DNA from: a virus
Length of the DNA: 64,000 nt
IMG/VR virus record: IMGVR_UViG_3300032315_001604
Location: 1-64,000 of that record
Reading direction: 5' to 3' (one strand)
Position numbers and translations under genes: made by a program. The stretch's first letter is position 1. Each line of letters starts with the position of its first letter. Below, piece by piece: positions 3,565 to 31,964 of this stretch. The notes beneath the pieces were generated by a model. The model saw only the letters and a program-made list of their open reading frames with translations. It had not been told where the DNA came from and did no database searches.

Positions 3565-3607
3565 ATTATATTAGATATTTTTCAGAGAAAGTCAATAAAT
3601 ACTGATA

Positions 3608-4003
3608 ATGAAGTTTTCCGATTATATGAGTTCTAATTTTGAAGGTGCAGGTTTTTTGTTTGTGACATTGGATGATAAAATTCTGATGTTACAGAAGCCG
3701 AACAAGAAGTGGAGTCTGGTTGGAGGGCATAGTGAGAAGGGGGAATCTCCTTTGGAGACTGCTCAGAGGGAATGTAAGGAAGAAATTGGTTTTTTACCTT
3801 CAGGTAAAATTTTTAAAAATATCAAATATAAAAAAGCCGAATCGGATTGTTATTCTTTTGTCCAAAGGGTTGATTCGAAATTCAAACCTCGTTTATCATC
3901 GGAACATATTGACTATAAATGGATACCTTTCAAAAAAATTAACAAGTATGTTATATCCAAAGCAGTTCGTGACTTGCTTCCTCATCTGAAAGGAATGTTT
4001 TAA
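3608..4003 (+). CDS. Nudix hydrolase
   Basis: Nudix box GGHSEKGESPLETAQRECKEEIG. Confidence 0.9.
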   Translation: MKFSDYMSSNFEGAGFLFVTLDDKILMLQKPNKKWSLVGGHSEKGESPLETAQRECKEEIGFLPSGKIFKNIKYKKAESDCYSFVQRVDSKFKPRLSSEHIDYKWIPFKKINKYVISKAVRDLLPHLKGMF

Positions 4004-9882: not shown

Positions 9883-11028
9883 ATGCCCTATACCTTTAAT
9901 CCGTTTACTGGTGGATTAGATGGAGCAGGTGCAGGTGGGCTTGCAGATGCTCCTTCTGATGGAGTTCTTCGTGCTCGAAAGAACGGATCTTGGTCTACTA
10001 TTGATGCAGCAGATATTCCCAGCTTACCTGCTAATGGTCTTGATATGACTTTAATAGAAGCAACAGATGGCTTGTATGGATACATAGGAGATATAGGAGT
10101 TAATCAGTTTGTTGGGGATACCTCTTTAACGGGTTTGTATCTGGGAAATAGTGTTACAAGTATTGGAAATCAGGCTTTTTATGAGTGCTCTGGTCTTATT
10201 GGTTCTTTAACTATACCAAATAGTGTTACTAGTATTGGTAGTCTGGCTTTTCAAAGTTGCTCTGGTTTTACTGGTTCTTTAACTATTCCAAATAGTGTTA
10301 CAAGTATTGGTAGTAGTGCTTTCTATAATTGCTCTGGTTTTACAGGCTCCTTAACTATCCCTAATAGTGTTACTAGTATTGGTAGTCTGGCTTTTTATGA
10401 TTGCAGTGGTTTCACAGGTTCTTTGACTATAGGAACTAGTGTTTCAAGTATTAATGATGGTGCTTTTGAAAGTTGCAATGGGTTTACAGGCTCCCTCACC
10501 ATTCCGGGAACAGCTTCAATCGGAAGCTTTGCGTTTTATGCTTGCAGCTTTAATGGCTTAAATGTAACTGGAACTTCTATAAATTCTAATGCTTTTGAAT
10601 ATAATAAAACAAATGCTTTTGGATCATTGAATATTGCTAATACCATTACAAGTATTGGAAATCAGGCTTTTTATGAGTGCTCTGGTCTTATTGGTTCTTT
10701 AACTATACCAAATAGCATTACAAGTATTGGTAGTTATGCTTTTGATAGTTGCTCTGGTTTTACTGGTTCTTTAACTATACCAAATAGCATTACAAGTATC
10801 GGAGGTAGTGCTTTTAGAAATTGCTTTAACTTAACAAATGCTTATTTGAATCAGCCCTTGTCTGCAATAGGTTCCAATGCTTTTCAAAATTCAGGTCTTA
10901 CCACAATTCACCTTCAACCATCCCCCAACACTCCTGCGGGTTGGACCATAGGTTCTGGGCAAACAATACGTGGTAAATCTGGAATTACCGTGGTAGCAAA
11001 TTGGACAACCCATCCTAATCCTCCGTAA
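9883..11028 (+). CDS. BspA-type leucine-rich repeat (LRR_5) fibre-like protein 1
   Basis: About 11 GSLTIPNSVTSIGxxAFxxCSGFT repeats; N-terminal MPYTFNPFTG and DAPSDG motifs. Confidence 0.85.
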   Translation: MPYTFNPFTGGLDGAGAGGLADAPSDGVLRARKNGSWSTIDAADIPSLPANGLDMTLIEATDGLYGYIGDIGVNQFVGDTSLTGLYLGNSVTSIGNQAFYECSGLIGSLTIPNSVTSIGSLAFQSCSGFTGSLTIPNSVTSIGSSAFYNCSGFTGSLTIPNSVTSIGSLAFYDCSGFTGSLTIGTSVSSINDGAFESCNGFTGSLTIPGTASIGSFAFYACSFNGLNVTGTSINSNAFEYNKTNAFGSLNIANTITSIGNQAFYECSGLIGSLTIPNSITSIGSYAFDSCSGFTGSLTIPNSITSIGGSAFRNCFNLTNAYLNQPLSAIGSNAFQNSGLTTIHLQPSPNTPAGWTIGSGQTIRGKSGITVVANWTTHPNPP

Positions 11029-11036
11029 ATAATATT

Positions 11037-12260
11037 ATGCCATACAAATTTAATCCATTTACAGGTAGTTTAGATACAGCAGGTTCAGGAGGTATTCCAG
11101 AAGCTCCTGCTGATGGCAATCTCTATGACAGAAAGAGTGGTCAATGGGTTCAACCTGAAGCATCAGATGTTACAGACTTTCCTACAAATTTTGCAGACCA
11201 TACTTTTATTACCACTAATGATGATCCCAGTAAAGTTATCATGACTTATGGAAGTATTGGTAGTAGTGCTTATAATTATAGAACAGATTTAACAGGTCTT
11301 TATTTAGGAAGCTCTGTAACAAGTATTGGAAGTAATGCTTTTCAAGGTTGCGGTGGTTTTACTGGTTCTTTAACCATACCAAATAGTGTTACAAGTATTG
11401 GTAGTGATGCTTTTAGAAGTTGCTCTGGATTTACTGGTTCTTTAACCATAGGAAGCGGTGTTACAAGTATTGGTAGTTCTGCTTTTTATCAAACTAGTTT
11501 AACAGGATCTTTAACCATTCCCAATAATGTTACAAGTATTGGAAGTTATGCATTTTATCAAAATGAAGGTTTTACAGGTACATTGACTTTATCAAATAGC
11601 CTGACAAGTATTCAACAGTCAACTTTTAAGAGTTCTAGTTTTACAGGCTCTTTGACTATACCTAATAGTGTAACAAGTATTAATGATGGTGCTTTCTATA
11701 GTTGCACTGGCTTTACTGGTTCTTTAACTATTCCAAATAGCGTTACAAATATTGGTAATCAGGCTTTTGCTTATTGCACTGGCTTTACTGATTCTTTAAC
11801 TCTTGGTAATACCATTACAAGTATTGGAAGTCAGGCTTTTTATGAGTGCGACTTTTCAGGTTCTCTAATTATTCCGAATAGTGTTACAACTATTGGAAGT
11901 CAGGCTTTTTATGACTGCAACTTTTCAGGTTCTCTAATTATTCCGAATAGTGTTACAACTATTGGGAGTTATGCTTTTGCTTATTGCTACGGTATTGGAA
12001 GTTCTCTAACTATTCCAAATAGTGCTACGAGTATTGGTGATCGTGCTTTTCTTGCATGTGAAAGCGTAATAGATGCTTATTTGAATCAGCCTCTGTCTGC
12101 ATTTAATAATACTTTTCAAGCCTCAAATCTTACTACAGTTCACCTCAGACCATCTCCTAATACTCCTGCGGGTTGGACTATAGGTTCAGAGCAAACAATA
12201 GTCGGGCAAGACGATGTTAATGTAGTGGCAGATTGGACAACATATCCAAATCCCCCTTGA
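11037..12260 (+). CDS. BspA-type LRR fibre-like protein 2
   Basis: About 12 repeats; MPYKFNPFTG and EAPADG motifs; shared C-cap. Confidence 0.85.
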   Translation: MPYKFNPFTGSLDTAGSGGIPEAPADGNLYDRKSGQWVQPEASDVTDFPTNFADHTFITTNDDPSKVIMTYGSIGSSAYNYRTDLTGLYLGSSVTSIGSNAFQGCGGFTGSLTIPNSVTSIGSDAFRSCSGFTGSLTIGSGVTSIGSSAFYQTSLTGSLTIPNNVTSIGSYAFYQNEGFTGTLTLSNSLTSIQQSTFKSSSFTGSLTIPNSVTSINDGAFYSCTGFTGSLTIPNSVTNIGNQAFAYCTGFTDSLTLGNTITSIGSQAFYECDFSGSLIIPNSVTTIGSQAFYDCNFSGSLIIPNSVTTIGSYAFAYCYGIGSSLTIPNSATSIGDRAFLACESVIDAYLNQPLSAFNNTFQASNLTTVHLRPSPNTPAGWTIGSEQTIVGQDDVNVVADWTTYPNPP

Positions 12261-12290
12261 TTTATTTCTCCCAAGATATAAAATAATAAT

Positions 12291-13088
12291 ATGTCTAAAA
12301 CAGTTCATTTTGTATCAGGTCTTCCAAGAGCCACTAGCACTCTTCTCTGCAACCTATTAGCACAGAACCCAAGAGTTCATGCAACAGCAACATCCCCTTT
12401 GCATGAGATTGGTTATATTGCAAGGAAAGTATTTCAAACTGAAGAAGCAAAAGCGATTGGTGGTGATGTGCTTGAGACTATGTTTAAGGATTATGTCAAA
12501 GGTGGGGTCGAAAATGCTTTTAATTCATTGACAGATAGACCTGTTGTAGCCGATAAATGCAGATCATATATTGGTCACTTGGATATGATCTTTCAAATCT
12601 TTCCTGATGCTAAAGTTCTTGTTCCAGTAAGAGATGTAAGAGGCATTCTTTGCTCCATGGAAAAAATCAGAAGAAAGCATCCAGCACCTTTTAATGGCTT
12701 CGAAGAACAAAATCCAGCTAACTTTACTACAATTGAAAAAAGAGCGCAGGGATGGCTTCAACATCCACCTGTTGGCATTGCTATTGAAAGATTGTTTGAA
12801 GCAACAGCAAGATTTAAAGACAAGCTTCACTTTGTTCATTCAGAAGACTTAACATCAAACCCTAAAGAAACTATGCAAAAGGTTTGGGAATATCTTGAAG
12901 AAGATTTCGATAAACATGACTTTAATAATGTAGAACAATATACTAAAGAAGTAGAAGTGGGTTGGCCTTATGGTGATCATTCTATTAGACCTCAAATTAA
13001 ACCATTACCTATGGATTATGATAAGATTCTTGGAAAACAGCTATCAGATGCTATAAAGCAGAAGTTTGCTTGGATAAATAATTTATAA
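12291..13088 (+). CDS. Sulfotransferase family protein
   Basis: 5-prime PAPS-binding loop SGLPRATSTLL; VPVRDVRGILCS second motif. Confidence 0.75.
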   Translation: MSKTVHFVSGLPRATSTLLCNLLAQNPRVHATATSPLHEIGYIARKVFQTEEAKAIGGDVLETMFKDYVKGGVENAFNSLTDRPVVADKCRSYIGHLDMIFQIFPDAKVLVPVRDVRGILCSMEKIRRKHPAPFNGFEEQNPANFTTIEKRAQGWLQHPPVGIAIERLFEATARFKDKLHFVHSEDLTSNPKETMQKVWEYLEEDFDKHDFNNVEQYTKEVEVGWPYGDHSIRPQIKPLPMDYDKILGKQLSDAIKQKFAWINNL

Positions 13089-13555
13089 TGAAATACGCAA
13101 TATTAGGACCAAGAAAAGCAGTTAATAGAATCTCTGATACAGAACCACAAACATTATCAAGTTTAAGTGCTACTGTTGTAGAGTTTACAGATGAACAAGC
13201 ACATACTGTATTAGCAGGTTTATCAGCAACACCATCAACTCGTTATTTTTATCTCAGCGGAAATTTAATTACATTTAAAGATAAGTTTGAACAAGATAGA
13301 TCAACTCCTACATTAACCCAAGAACAGACCATCAAAAGAGGTGAAATGTTTGTTCAGAATAAAGGATTTTCAGCACAGAGGCTTGTTACATTAATGGACA
13401 AGTTGATTCAAGTTAAAGAAGCTAATGCTTTAGCTTCAAACCCAAAGCTTGTTGCTGTATATCAATGGCTCCAAGAAGTAAAAGCGAAAGCGATTGCTAC
13501 GCAAATTAATTTTTCAGAACCACCTTATACATTCGAAGAAGTCATAACCGAATAA
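13088..13555 (+). CDS. Hypothetical protein, possible fibre assembly chaperone
   Basis: Position between fibre-like genes; inference only. Confidence 0.45.
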   Translation: MKYAILGPRKAVNRISDTEPQTLSSLSATVVEFTDEQAHTVLAGLSATPSTRYFYLSGNLITFKDKFEQDRSTPTLTQEQTIKRGEMFVQNKGFSAQRLVTLMDKLIQVKEANALASNPKLVAVYQWLQEVKAKAIATQINFSEPPYTFEEVITE

Positions 13556-13563
13556 GTATTTAC

Positions 13564-15342
13564 ATGGCCTATTCCTTCAATCCGTTTACAGGTAGTTTAG
13601 ATGATTCTGGAGGAACATCTGGTATTGTAGATGCACCTTCTGATGGAGGCTTGTATGGTCGGGGAACTTTTGATACTAGTGGAGTCTCCTTACTGCTTCA
13701 CATGGATGGATCATCTGGATCTCAAAACTTCATTGACAGTTCTTTAAATAATTTCACAGTAACTAATAATGGAGGTGCTCAAATTGATACAGCATTCAAG
13801 AAGTTTGGAACAGGTTCTAGTTATTTTAATTATGGTGACAGTACATATTTGCAAACTGAGTCTTCTTCGGAATTTGGTTTGGGTACTGGGAATTTTACTG
13901 TTGAAATGTGGCTATACAAAGATACTGCAATATTAAACTTTAATGGGTTTTTTTGCATAAATCAGTACAATAATAATGGTATTTTAATTAGAATACAGTC
14001 AGCTTTTGATTCTCTTTATGTTGGTGGAGAAACTTATAATTGGGATCCTAGCACCAACTTTCCATTAAATCAATGGAATCATTTTGCCCTAGTAAGAAAT
14101 AATGGAGTAATAAAAATTTATATTAATGGCATTGCAGTTTTTACTGCAAATAATAATAATAACAATTTAGGATCTACAGGCATAGTCACTGTTGGTGCAA
14201 GTTCTCACAATTATAATGAAGGGTTTGGTGGTTATATTGATGAAGTAAGAGTTGCCAAAGGTGTTGCAAGATACATGGCAAACTTTGATGTGCCTACTGT
14301 GCCTTTTTCTAATCCTGCATATCCTGCTCCAAGTTGGAGTAATCACACCAAGGAAGACATACTCAACAATGAATCTGGTCCTCCTTTAACTCTCCTTATC
14401 AATTCTGATAATACTATTACAGGGGTTTATGGAAGTATTGGTTATCAGGCATATACTGGCCAAGATCAATTGTTAGGATTACAAATAGGTACAAGTGTTA
14501 TAACTGTTGGTAGTGGAGCCTTTGAGTATTGCTCTGGTCTTACTGGCTCTTTAACTATACCAAATAGTGTTACAGATATTGGTAATGGAGCTTTTGGTGG
14601 TTGCACTGGTTTTACAGGTTCTTTAACAATACCAAATAGTGTTACAAATATTGGTAGTTTTGCTTTTTATCAATGCTCTGGTTTTACAGGTTCTTTAACT
14701 ATTCCTAATTCTGTTACGAGTATTGGTAATAATGCTTTTAGAAATTGCAACGGATTTACAAATTCTTTAGCCATACCAAATAGTGTTACAAGTATTGGTA
14801 GTGATGCTTTTATAGATTGCTCTGGTTTTACAGGCTCCTTAACTATCCCTAATAGTGTTACTAGTATTGGTAGTCTGGCTTTTGAAAATTGTACTGGCCT
14901 AACAAACGCTTATTTAAATCAGCCACTATCTGCGGTTGGATCTAATGCTTTCATTAGTTCAGGACTCACTACAATTCACCTTCAACCATCCCCCAACACT
15001 CCTGCGGGTTGGACCATAGGTTCTGGGCAAACAATACGTGGTAAATCTGGAATTACTGTAGTAGCTGATTGGACTGAATATCCAGTTGGTACTTGCAATG
15101 ATGCAACTGCACAAGTTCTTATGACAGGTTGGGTTTATGGAGATAGAACATTATCCCCAATTGGATATTTTCCGTTTGGAGGAGAAACCTATGTTTATGG
15201 GGATGAAGTTGTAAGATATGTAGATGGTGTTTGGATCTATGAAAACAGTGGATTAGAAATAACAAGGGCTTATGGTTATGTGGGACGCCCTTGGCTGGCT
15301 ACTTGGGATTCTCCTTTTACATCAAGTAAAATATGTCCATAA
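13564..15342 (+). CDS. LamG/ConA-like + BspA LRR fibre-like protein 3
   Basis: MAYSFNPFTG; LLLHMDG...FTVEMW...WNHFALVR...GYIDEVRV (LamG-like); about 8 LRRs; extra C-terminal domain. Confidence 0.85.
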   Translation: MAYSFNPFTGSLDDSGGTSGIVDAPSDGGLYGRGTFDTSGVSLLLHMDGSSGSQNFIDSSLNNFTVTNNGGAQIDTAFKKFGTGSSYFNYGDSTYLQTESSSEFGLGTGNFTVEMWLYKDTAILNFNGFFCINQYNNNGILIRIQSAFDSLYVGGETYNWDPSTNFPLNQWNHFALVRNNGVIKIYINGIAVFTANNNNNNLGSTGIVTVGASSHNYNEGFGGYIDEVRVAKGVARYMANFDVPTVPFSNPAYPAPSWSNHTKEDILNNESGPPLTLLINSDNTITGVYGSIGYQAYTGQDQLLGLQIGTSVITVGSGAFEYCSGLTGSLTIPNSVTDIGNGAFGGCTGFTGSLTIPNSVTNIGSFAFYQCSGFTGSLTIPNSVTSIGNNAFRNCNGFTNSLAIPNSVTSIGSDAFIDCSGFTGSLTIPNSVTSIGSLAFENCTGLTNAYLNQPLSAVGSNAFISSGLTTIHLQPSPNTPAGWTIGSGQTIRGKSGITVVADWTEYPVGTCNDATAQVLMTGWVYGDRTLSPIGYFPFGGETYVYGDEVVRYVDGVWIYENSGLEITRAYGYVGRPWLATWDSPFTSSKICP

Positions 15343-16451: not shown

Positions 16452-16908
16452 TGGTGGAGGTGTCGGAGTGCTGCCCTCCGAGTCTTTATAATCTACATTT
16501 ATATGTCTACATGTTTTAGTATCTTTAGCATTTCAGTCACCATACGGTAACGAAGACTTTAGGCTGCTTGGTGACACTAACCGAATTTTTAGTCTGCCTA
16601 TAGATATTAACGCAATCTATATACGGATAGTATTTTGTTTATTATGTCAGAATTACTAACAACCCGACACCCTCTGCTATCAATGAACTCTTAGAGGATC
16701 TAAGTTCAAGGTCTTTAGGCTGCTAAGAGCATTTCGTCTTCAGCACCTACGAGATACTCGTCGGCGTTGTTGAAGATATGTTCAGCTTCAGCTAAGATGG
16801 AGTCAGTATTATCTGCTCTTAATTTTTAATCGATTTTTTACGAGGCCATCGATTAACCTCGACATGCGATACAAATTTCAATTATAAATCGAAATCTAAT
16901 TCACCCCC
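16452..16908 (-). ncRNA. ssrA: tmRNA
   Basis: 5-prime GGGGGTG pairs with CACCTCC-A-CCA including G3:U70; UA at -5/-4 before GCA resume codon; tag ORF 16816-16715 ends LLAA-TAA. Confidence 0.92.
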
Positions 16909-16911
16909 AAA

Positions 16912-16923
16912 TTTTCAAAGATC
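16912..16923 (-). promoter_or_regulatory. boxA-like antitermination element
   Basis: GATCTTTGAAAA ending 3 nt before the tmRNA 5-prime end. Confidence 0.5.
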
Positions 16924-21500: not shown

Positions 21501-21585
21501 GGTAGCGTACTCAAGTGGTTTACGAGAACTGTTTACTAAACAGTCGAACAGAAATGTTCCGTGAGTTCGAATCTCACCGCTACCA
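21501..21585 (+). tRNA. tRNA-Ser(ACT), long variable arm
   Basis: ACTGT-TTACTAA-ACAGT; G1,G2,U3 acceptor, G15:C48, GAACA-GAAA-TGTTC arm. Confidence 0.8.
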
Positions 21586-27802: not shown

Positions 27803-27932
27803 AAAACAAATAAAAACAGCCAAATCTATTTTAAAAGATATAGAATTAAGCTATAAGAATAAAGATGGAAGATATGGTGTTTATGCATATTCCGTCCAAC
27901 ATGAAGAATTGAAAAGGTTGGAAAATTTATGA
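27780..27932 (+). CDS. Small hypothetical protein (not in track)
   Basis: 50-aa ORF, TGA overlaps next ATG. Confidence 0.45.
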   Translation: MKNKIQIEKQIKTAKSILKDIELSYKNKDGRYGVYAYSVQHEELKRLENL

Positions 27933-28054
27933 GTGATAAATTAGAAAAAATCATGGAAGAGATTGGTAAATTGACAATTACCGAACTTAACGAACTTATT
28001 AAAAGTTTAGAACCTATCTTTACACCAAAAGAAGAAAATACATTGACTGATTAA
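27929..28054 (+). CDS. Ribosomal protein bL12 N-terminal-domain-only mini-protein, 41 aa (not in track)
   Basis: MSDKLEKIMEEIGKLTITELNELIKSLEPIF matches the L7/L12 dimerisation helices (I..I.KLT..EL.EL.K.LE..F); no hinge or CTD. Confidence 0.65.
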   Translation: MSDKLEKIMEEIGKLTITELNELIKSLEPIFTPKEENTLTD

Positions 28055-28070
28055 ATATATCTGGTAAATT
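28043..28070 (+). promoter_or_regulatory. sigma70-type promoter for ncRNA/tRNA-Asn
   Basis: TTGACT-16nt-TAAATT with TG extension. Confidence 0.55.
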
Positions 28071-28077
28071 AGATATA

Positions 28078-28089
28078 GTTCTTTGAAAA
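28078..28089 (+). promoter_or_regulatory. boxA-like element
   Basis: GTTCTTTGAAAA right after the predicted start site. Confidence 0.6.
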
Positions 28090-28101
28090 ATTTAAAAAAG
28101 T

Positions 28102-28673
28102 TTAGTGCTGGATAGTCGGACCAGCACTAAAAATCCTGATGCGAAACCCATCAGGTCAGAGATAGGTTTAACCAATTAACAACTCTGCAATAAATGGATT
28201 GGTTTATAAAAAGGTATGCAACTCTACCTCTCTATATAACGGATACGTGTCCGTGTTCTGATCAGACATATAGAGTCCCATAGTGGATAGCTTGGAAGCG
28301 AAAAAAAAGAGTGTAGGTTCTGGGTAAACCAAAGCTATATAGGCTAAAACTCTTGTCCCGAAAGGGGTAAAGGTTCTGTGTTCTTCTGTTGTTGGCTTAT
28401 TGCCAACCAGAAGCCAGCAGTTTAAGGCGCAACTTAAACATCAGTCTGGTCCTGTTTGCGACAAAAACACCAATTTTAAGCCGAGAATCCTAACGAGATT
28501 CTAGTCAGAACCCACTGATGAGATGAAGCTGGTCGTTCCAGTAATAAGGGGGATGGTTGCCATGACCCGCATACGGTGTGCGTAAGTTGACTCGTCTGAA
28601 AAGATAGGGAGTCCGTGCTTGATTCCAGAAGGAAAAATCCGAAAGGAAAATGATGGTATGTAAAGACAGCCGA
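28102..28673 (+). ncRNA. Large structured ncRNA candidate (GOLLD/ROOL size class)
   Basis: No credible ORF; at least 10 hairpins incl. a perfect 10-bp stem and GNRA loops; ends a few nt before tRNA-Asn. Confidence 0.75.
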
Positions 28674-28679
28674 ATTTTT

Positions 28680-28751
28680 TGATGCGTAGCTCAATGGTAG
28701 AGCACTTGGCTGTTAACCAGGCTGTTGTAGGTTCGAGTCCTACCGCATCAG
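28680..28751 (+). tRNA. tRNA-Asn(GTT)
   Basis: CTTGG-CTGTTAA-CCAGG; U1:A72; G73. Confidence 0.9.
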
Positions 28752-28762
28752 TAATTATTATT

Positions 28763-28882
28763 GTGAAAAAACTATTATATACTATTATATTTGTTAGTAT
28801 TTGTTTACTTGTTTCTGGATGTTATAGCACAAAATCTATGGGCGATTCAGAAAAAGCAGATAAATATCTTTTCGTGTATTAA
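28763..28882 (+). CDS. Small lipoprotein
   Basis: GTG start; signal peptide ending LVSG-C. Confidence 0.55.
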   Translation: MKKLLYTIIFVSICLLVSGCYSTKSMGDSEKADKYLFVY

Positions 28883-28961
28883 CTAACGCTAAAAATAATA
28901 AAATTTGGCATTAATTAATTTTTAAATAGACAAAAAACCAATTCGTGATAAAATAACAATA

Positions 28962-29111
28962 ATGAAAAAATATTGCACGTTTCCAGATGAAACCAAAATC
29001 GAACTTCATTCAATTTTGGATGTAACTGATACTCATACTTGTATCTGTTACAATGATGAAAATATTTCCCAAATACTTTGGGTTCCTAACGATTTTATTG
29101 TTAATGATTAA
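28962..29111 (+). CDS. Small hypothetical protein (not in track)
   Basis: 49-aa ORF overlapping next start. Confidence 0.4.
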   Translation: MKKYCTFPDETKIELHSILDVTDTHTCICYNDENISQILWVPNDFIVND

Positions 29112-31944: not shown

Positions 31945-31964
31945 CTTTCTTTGAAAATTTTAAA

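Follow-up and report, generated by a model that had tools for sequence, protein, structure and literature searches.

We analysed a viral DNA stretch of 64,000 nucleotides (nt), hereafter the window, which is the first 64 kb of the 195-kb uncultivated virus record IMGVR_UViG_3300032315_001604, and focused on positions 28078-28679. There, a reading made from the sequence without database searches (the sequence-only reading) had proposed a single ornate non-coding RNA of about 570-600 nt next to a gene for an asparagine transfer RNA (tRNA-Asn). Our analysis confirmed that 28078-28679 is a genuine structured non-coding RNA locus on the + strand, the homologues of which keep base pairs rather than a reading frame; conservation of a frame instead of pairs was one of the two outcomes that reading had named as its refutation. 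The RNA locus was thus correctly recognized, but the single RNA was not borne out: the stretch is a fusion of two modules, A and B, which are found independently and in other combinations and are not demonstrably one RNA. The fusion of A with B, together with module B as a separate and widely re-used family, is what the window adds.

Base pairing in modules A and B

Homologues were gathered first through a neighbouring protein and then by scanning contigs of viruses and metagenomes for exact patterns. Some 25 contigs, from uncultivated phages and metagenomes, yielded 13 distinct module A sequences and 15 distinct module B sequences, plus one divergent module B paralogue (individual loci are denoted by L numbers). 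A further candidate, L042, was discarded because its pattern match had arisen by chance within coding sequence. In module B (alignment A3, model R1), 96.8% of the cells were paired, as opposed to 32-45% when the partners were slid, and 13 of the 32 pairs changed on both sides, with 64 such cells versus 23.5 in shuffles. In the model-fitted alignment of the module A 3' domain, pairing reached 95.1% of the cells versus 23-52% for slid partners, and changes on both sides were found in 11 of 17 pairs; the covariation counts are partly inherited because the family members are related.

Insertions and deletions among the homologues are mostly not multiples of three. The stretch itself is free of open reading frames (ORFs), in agreement with the earlier statement that it holds no credible ORF: each + frame has 10-15 stops, and the longest + strand ORF, allowing ATG, GTG and TTG starts, spans 34 amino acids. 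A Shine-Dalgarno-like TAAGGGGGAT with a 7-codon ORF was rejected, the ATG not being conserved. Also as read before, the stretch is richer in guanine and cytosine (GC) than its flanks (0.41-0.475 over 28100-28699 versus 0.245-0.31). The folding energy by itself was modestly unusual (z of -2.8 for the + strand and -4.0 for the - strand). The RNA could be assigned to the + strand because conserved and invariant helices hold G-U pairs, which the opposite strand would turn into A-C mismatches. The co-directed promoter, boxA-like leader and tRNA support the same assignment. The main parts of the locus are as follows.

28043-28070, + strand: sigma-70-type promoter, with a -35 box TTGACT (28043-28048), a 16-nt spacer with a TG extension and a -10 box TAAATT (28065-28070)
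28078-28089, + strand: boxA-like leader GTTCTTTGAAAA, at the predicted transcript 5' end and conserved in position
28080-28477, + strand: module A, about 400 nt with multiple hairpins (homologues of 317-600 nt, n = 13)
28483-28674, + strand: module B, about 190 nt (15 distinct homologues and the divergent paralogue)
28675-28679, + strand: spacer of five U's between module B and the tRNA, the presumed 5' leader for ribonuclease P (RNase P) cleavage
28680-28751, + strand: tRNA-Asn (anticodon GTT), intact, 70.7 bits, in the same orientation as the RNA

The promoter, the boxA-like word and the abutting tRNA-Asn had all been noticed in the sequence-only reading. Module B, which has an extremely conserved core, comprises the following elements.

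28485-28502, + strand: Pa, a covarying hairpin with the stem 28485-28490/28497-28502
28504-28519, + strand: hairpin inside a 21-nt block, 5 base pairs (bp), loop AACCCA
28528-28542, + strand: Pb, a hairpin
28548-28552, + strand: G-run, the invariant purine run AATAAGGGGGAT
28555-28567, + strand: Pc, the pairing of which was set by a G-C to A-U covariation
28568-28582, + strand: Pd, loop ACGGT with a conserved CGG and compensatory changes in the paralogue
about 28588-28660, + strand: variable domain
28667-28674, + strand: conserved 3' motif CAGCCGAA, an invariant CAGCCGA followed by a U-tract

The 21-nt block is invariant in 14 of the 15 module B sequences, with one substitution in L027, and is kept between phages of 30% and 50% GC. 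In the paralogue, the hairpin within this block retains its pairing through a C-G to G-C swap together with a G-U to G-C change. This hairpin bears on a long-range contact proposed earlier, in which CAGAACC at 28506 would pair with either of two GGTTCTG copies at 28316 and 28372. The words are present. However, CAGAACC forms half stem and half loop of the hairpin 28504-28519, and the proposed contact is unsupported because the local hairpin has a compensatory change in the paralogue and the modules exist apart; GGTTCTG is in any case kept in RNAs made of module A without module B (A-only RNAs). Two pseudoknots are possible in module B, one between the CCC of the AACCCA loop and the G-run and the other between the CGG of the Pd loop and the CCG of the 3' motif; both candidate pairings are invariant across the sequences.

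Module A, the larger of the two, has variable 5' hairpins, some of them optional.

28102-28130, + strand: H1, perfect 10-bp stem (28102-28111/28121-28130) with a 9-nt loop
28135-28155, + strand: H2, 7-bp stem CCTGATG/CATCAGG (28135-28141/28149-28155)
28157-28204, + strand: optional pseudoknot-capable domain, CAGAG/CTCTG interleaved with AACCAAT/ATTGGTT (28170-28176/28198-28204)
28212-28229, + strand: H4, inside the 20-nt block AAGGTATGCAACTCTACCTC
28230-28275, + strand: H5, long hairpin with an 8-bp outer and a 5-bp inner stem
28276-28384, + strand: conserved core of blocks, small helices and an optional GAAA hairpin, the fold of which is partly resolved
28385-28411, + strand: H10, variable hairpin with the stem 28391-28396/28402-28407
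28413-28450, + strand: H11/H12, a 10-bp hairpin in which GCCAG/CTGGT closes an inner stem (28420-28426/28433-28439) with the hexaloop GCGCAA

A coordinate check of the letters found every stem that had been listed in the sequence-only reading, as well as its GAAA (GNRA) loops at 28360 and 28641. Among the homologues, H1, H5, H10 and H11 are folded from different sequences in each lineage. H1 has 10 of 10 pairs in all seven fused-type (A+B) sequences; L006 differs in both partners of three pairs, and others have wobble changes; A-only RNAs bear a different hairpin at this site, and L047 has none. H2 is limited to the fused lineage and shows one compensatory pair, again in L006. According to the alignment, GGCGAT/ATCGCC replaces AACCAAT/ATTGGTT in A-only RNAs, and the whole pseudoknot-capable domain is absent from L027, L040 and L044. 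At H5, at least five different sequences form a hairpin at the same site, the closing pairs covarying between CTCTATAT/ATATAGAG and CCATATG../..CATATGG. Eight unrelated stem sequences occupy the position of H10, where 7 of 7 modelled pairs changed on both sides, and H11/H12 is paired in 97% of the cells with both-side changes in four pairs. The stem of H4 is predicted, and its pairs show no variation across the homologues; ten of the 13 distinct sequences have the surrounding block AAGGTATGCAACTCTACCTC unchanged, and L040, L044 and L047 each show a single-base difference in it.

In the core are the single-stranded-looking blocks GTCCCATAGTGGATA, AAGAGTGTAGGTTCTGGGTAAACC and GGTTCTGTGTTCT, together with two small helices, one at 28333-28335/28343-28345 and the other at 28348-28351/28372-28375; a hairpin at 28357-28366 capped by GAAA is optional. 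The pair 28333/28345 is A-U in eight sequences and G-C in four. A stem AAGAGT/ACTCTT (28307-28312/28349-28354), put forward earlier, exists in the window as letters, but it is weak, since it has mismatches in some homologues and an alternative local hairpin is possible. The 3' tail of module A is conserved as GGTCC-N4-TGCGAC-A5-CACCAA-TTTT.

Module combinations across phages

Module A occurs without B in L026, L028, L030 and L031, where a tRNA with a CAT anticodon (tRNA-Met) follows 5-7 nt on. These A-only RNAs of about 335-360 nt belong to the module A family and have a promoter and a boxA-like leader; compared with them, module A of the window has additional 5' hairpins, and module B and tRNA-Asn are joined to it. 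In L047-49, module A without B precedes a new promoter and an ORF, and L024 carries a divergent 600-nt form before a small ORF. Module B stands alone, after an ORF stop, in L020 and L039. In L033, L034, L035, L037, L038, L043 and L045, it lies behind an unrelated, GC-richer structured RNA of about 500-700 nt (C-type). The C-type loci, which belong to GC-richer phages, usually have a tRNA-Cys 5 nt past module B, a TTGACT...TAAAT promoter and a boxA-like leader, with a second boxA-like word in the middle of the RNA in L034 and L035, and their RNAs are mosaics of blocks that are present or absent between loci. One virus carries a second, divergent copy of module B (58.7 bits). Since each module occurs alone, B also occurs behind unrelated 5' RNAs, and each has its own end motif and U-tract, we regard the modules as autonomous. 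From the varied combinations, we conclude that phages shuffle a set of structured RNA modules that have one type of promoter and boxA layout in common, the window representing A+B.

An additional 125-nt element is placed exactly at the A/B joint of L006, and the C-type locus L037 shares part of it. By eye, this insert resembles the RNA upstream of the module B paralogue in L053, a match that BLAST did not give. An element GGGTGAAG...GCGGTGCTTCGG was likewise seen by eye in the L006 insert (3572-3690), upstream of the paralogue in L053 (1501-1965, - strand) and in L037, of which BLAST confirmed only the links of the L006 insert and of L053 to L037. Furthermore, a hairpin block of about 75 nt with a ATAGTCTAGAAAGAGA-type loop is common to L053, L034 (11700-11800) and L035. 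None of the extra RNA blocks of L006, L053 and L034 had a BLAST match in the genome of the window. At about 2150-2235 of L053 (- strand), just upstream of a small ORF, we noticed a sequence shaped like a tRNA, in which GGTTCGATTCC resembles a T-arm and ...CCACCTCCA an acceptor end; ARAGORN did not call it, and it may be an interrupted or degenerate tRNA.

The RNA locus is single-copy in its source virus. Of 50,697 cultured-phage records, none matched the query outside its tRNA part. A scan with exact patterns for modules A and B, run on a single genome per species for 185,579 prokaryote species, found neither, though divergent copies would escape it. As far as exact patterns can see, both modules thus seem to be restricted to phages. 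A survey of structured RNAs in IMG/VR, the motifs of which average 67 nt, makes no mention of an RNA at 28078-28679 (PMC10690425).

Proposed expression of the locus and competing explanations

Transcription of the locus is predicted to start at about 28075-28078. A like promoter (TTGACx, a spacer of 16-17 nt, TAxAxT) is found at the same position in every module A locus and in the GC-richer C-type loci. The leader GTTCTTTGAAAA is nearly invariant at the 5' end of 13 module A loci, the exceptions being one ..TTGACAAA and one ..TTTAAAA, and the C-type loci have AGTTCTTTTACAATTTG in its place. AGTTCTTTTACAATTTG is very close to the boxA region of the Escherichia coli ribosomal RNA (rRNA) operons (rrn), closer still than GTTCTTTGAAAA, which also resembles the rrn boxA. 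A literature search on the boxA-like leader word gave nothing useful. Two further boxA-like words, near-identical to the leader word, were noted in the window: ATCTTTGAAAA at 16912-16922 (- strand), directly upstream of the phage gene for transfer-messenger RNA (tmRNA; 16452-16908, - strand, by Rfam match), and TTCTTTGAAAA at 31947-31957 (+ strand), between tRNA-Tyr and tRNA-Ile in a tRNA cluster. Judged from such words, one antitermination or processing signal may be common to all stable-RNA genes of the phage. The like arrangement of promoter and boxA in all loci and the boxA-like copies at the tmRNA gene and the tRNA cluster support the idea of an operon.

We consider it reasonably probable that the locus is a phage stable-RNA operon, consisting of promoter, boxA-like leader, modules A and B and tRNA-Asn, from which stable RNAs acting in trans are processed. 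The sigma-70-type promoter would give rise to a transcript that starts with the boxA-like element and runs through A and B into tRNA-Asn. By analogy with rRNA operons, the leader would recruit the host antitermination machinery of the NusB/S10 type, allowing a long, untranslated and folded transcript to escape Rho and to pass the U-tracts. No terminator-like site was found on the + strand between the promoter and tRNA-Asn, and a U-rich tract lies 3' of module B in every homologue, whether a tRNA is present or not. Cleavage by RNase P at the 5' end of the tRNA would free the RNA, its 3' end being made at the edge between the spacer 28675-28679 and the tRNA, as the sequence-only reading had also envisaged. 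The A/U-rich linker at 28474-28482 could be cut as well, parting A from B. Invariant blocks that look single-stranded, among them the 21-mer in module B, suggest that the processed RNAs accumulate. In what we regard as the weakest step, the freed RNAs would act in trans through these invariant unpaired blocks on a conserved partner of the translation or tRNA apparatus, of the host or the phage. They might also form RNA-only assemblies, by analogy with GOLLD and ROOL.

Several points weigh against the operon reading. The start, the ends, the processing and the stability of the transcript are all predictions from the letters. The boxA assignment stands on resemblance and conserved position, and with one mismatch allowed the 11-mer is no rarer in the AT-rich window than in shuffled sequence (20 matches seen, 12.9 expected). 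Some 25 contigs make up this small family, and common ancestry of its members accounts for part of the covariation counts. Moreover, A and B are always fused in the lineage of the window, and a 7-nt insert in A, at 28441-28447, is complementary to part of the invariant block of B. The constant fusion and the complementary insert mean that A and B could still work as one RNA here.

The last two points belong to an alternative that we judge unlikely, namely one RNA of about 600 nt with A and B as its domains, organized like GOLLD and perhaps self-assembling into a multimeric cage. Module B would then act as the universal 3' region behind different 5' regions, of the A or C type, as in GOLLD. Contiguity of A and B throughout the lineage fits this proposal, and so does the insert, which reads CATCAGT (or CGTCAGT), is confined to fused RNAs and could pair with the complementary ACTGATG of B. 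A GCGC palindrome in the H12 loop, kept in 12 of 13 sequences as GCGCAA, could serve self-association. On the other hand, A occurs without B, and B occurs without any 5' RNA; ACTGATG is held in the local hairpin with its compensatory change in the paralogue; in L024, where A is most divergent, the loop reads ACGCAA and lacks self-complementarity; and the GOLLD and ROOL models had no match. We also considered the two contacts individually. Pairing of CATCAGT (28441) with ACTGATG (28512) is lineage-specific and competes with a covarying local hairpin, leaving it as a possibility for the fused form only, and the GCGC loop as a universal dimerisation site is weakened by the ACGCAA of L024.

Alternatively, the RNA might be a cis-acting leader that controls the downstream tRNA, by antitermination, by attenuation at the U-tracts or by protecting or presenting the precursor, and that has no role once cut off. 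It heads tRNA genes in most loci at a distance of 5-7 nt, a U-tract ends each module, and the leader is boxA-like. Nevertheless, there is no downstream tRNA on the strand in L020, L034, L039, L047-49 and L053, the tRNA varies by locus (Asn, Cys or Met), and other tRNA clusters of the same phage have no such RNA. Modules of 400 and 190 nt with long invariant blocks also far exceed what known leaders need, and we find this explanation quite improbable.

A further, doubtful proposal concerns the division of labour between the parts. Module B might form the recognition or catalytic core of a novel type of RNA machine, joined by phages at tRNA junctions to structured carrier RNAs of various kinds. 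It could be a ribozyme acting on precursor or host tRNA or rRNA, or else the assembly unit of a new RNA-only cage, for which A, C, D and E would supply interchangeable scaffold or cargo domains shuffled among stable-RNA operons. In another alternative, module B would be a new catalytic RNA, for example self-cleaving or processing the tRNA junction, and A an unrelated passenger. In favour of a ribozyme, a core of about 120 nt combines the invariant 21-nt block with additional invariant runs and two candidate pseudoknots, its conservation spans phages of very different base composition, and the distance to the tRNA 5' end is short and fixed in most loci. The block even contains CTGATGA, a core word of the hammerhead. 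Yet the sequence after CTGATGA fits neither a hammerhead stem II nor a GAA box, no ribozyme of Rfam matched even at E<=10, and we rejected the hammerhead reading. The invariance fits a protein- or RNA-binding site equally well, and this alternative seems very unlikely to us.

Several neighbouring genes and other features of the phage were also noted. An ORF of 41 amino acids on the + strand (27929-28054) ends at 28054, so that the -35 box (28043-28048) lies within its last codons. About 210 nt past tRNA-Asn, at 28962-29111 (+ strand), an ORF of 49 amino acids with Cys residues stands beside every A+B locus fetched, with 52-84% identity. In virus G005, its homologue stops a few bases before an RNA array with a divergent module B (L053 1963-2139, - strand). 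This small protein may be a partner of the RNA or may merely be syntenic. The source virus is a contractile-tailed phage of about 30% GC, encoding a tail sheath, a class II ribonucleotide reductase and BspA-type leucine-rich repeat proteins, besides 13 tRNA genes and one tmRNA. ARAGORN called a tRNA-Ser with the anticodon ACT at 21501-21585 (+ strand), which is absent from the Rfam tRNA matches at the gathering score and may be atypical; an unmodified A34 in a tRNA is unusual. Three consecutive large ORFs at 9883-15342 (+ strand) contain BspA-type leucine-rich repeats, one of them together with a concanavalin-like lectin domain, and are probably host-recognition or surface proteins.

Relation to known RNAs

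We compared the sequence with all 4227 families of Rfam 15 using cmscan, at the gathering level and, for 27900-28900, at E<=10. At the gathering level, only tRNA was found, with the tmRNA elsewhere in the window. At E<=10, the matches were at chance level, and none was to a group I or group II intron, OLE, HEARO, raiA or a self-cleaving ribozyme. The model RF01998, a piece of a group II intron, did not match either. For GOLLD (RF02032, threshold 150 bits), neither cmscan of 27900-28900 nor the dedicated model run on the entire virus gave a match at E<=10. Weak GOLLD matches in related viruses, the best of 14 bits against this cut-off of 150 bits, were rejected, as they lie on an ordinary unrelated terminator. 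ROOL (RF03087, threshold 99.1 bits) gave no cmscan match at E<=10; the dedicated ROOL model also gave none on the whole virus, a negative that counts for less because the model matched no control genome. These searches with GOLLD, ROOL and intron models, which had been suggested at the outset, agree with the second of the two options then offered, a member of the GOLLD and ROOL class or something new: the RNA is of the same general kind, and the failed membership tests argue for a new pair of families that belongs to neither.

The remaining alternative is a known RNA so divergent that the models miss it (RNase P RNA, tmRNA, group I or II intron, OLE or 6S), and it is largely refuted. Beyond the chance-level Rfam matches, the RNase P model RNaseP_bact_a (RF00010) found nothing at E<=10 anywhere on the virus, whereas it found its target in 11 of 14 control genomes; the few short RNase P-like words noticed by eye come in an order unfit for RNase P, with its P4 helix and conserved regions CR-I to CR-V; a tmRNA is encoded elsewhere in the phage; and flanking exons for an intron are missing around an intact tRNA of 70.7 bits. 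The words in question were a CCACAGTGAATAAG-like block and GGTAAACC in module A, which resemble J11/12 and J12/13 of RNase P (GGTAAAC was considered as well), and CAGAACCC in module B, which resembles a P4 strand; with the words in the wrong order and no model match, the RNase P reading was rejected. Likeness to 5S or 16S rRNA through TGCCAGCAG and GTAACAAGGTA in L027 was dismissed too, these words being short, not conserved in the family and without a match to an rRNA model.

Large and intricately folded RNAs of bacteria and phages are rare. The known examples, GOLLD, ROOL and OLE, form RNA-only assemblies without precedent, and their functions are still unknown. The locus adds two well-supported new RNA families and suggests that such RNAs can be built from autonomous modules recombined by phages (A, B, A+B, C+B and D+E+B), which is less clear in the known cases. 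The combinations amount to natural domain-swap experiments on the role of each part. The compact and extremely conserved core of module B, about 120 nt, is of a size suited to determining its structure and to screens for activity. The locus would also tie phage stable RNAs to antitermination of the rRNA type.

Among known systems, the leaders of rRNA operons with NusB/S10-dependent antitermination share the promoter-proximal, U-rich boxA-like word and the long, untranslated, structured transcript with a tRNA, whereas the present locus has no rRNA and its binding of Nus factors is putative. Phage T4 offers another parallel in its species 1 and 2 RNAs (rnaC and rnaD), stable RNAs of unknown function that are co-transcribed with, and processed from, a tRNA cluster; at about 120-140 nt, they are much shorter, and the 50,697 cultured-phage records showed no likeness in sequence to the locus beyond its tRNA part.

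The closest comparison is with GOLLD and ROOL, both described as large phage RNAs near tRNAs with unknown function (10.1101/2024.12.08.627333). ROOL is reported as a multi-pseudoknotted RNA of about 580 nt from phages and prophages, near tRNA islands and without a known protein partner (10.1101/2024.12.08.627333). The size and the phage setting near tRNAs are similar, but ROOL has been described as one conserved fold and not as shuffled modules. GOLLD has a 3' region of universal conservation and a 5' region that is less conserved, with tRNAs sometimes covalently linked (10.1101/2024.12.08.627333). Like GOLLD, a structured RNA of phages and prophages often found beside tRNA genes, the RNA studied here places a conserved module B behind variable 5' modules. 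In contrast, many GOLLD members exceed 800 nt, as opposed to about 600 nt here, the GOLLD model of 416 positions is set against a conserved 3' module of about 190 nt, and the modules described here also live alone. The pattern of a conserved 3' part, a variable 5' part and a nearby tRNA is a likeness of architecture, not of homology.

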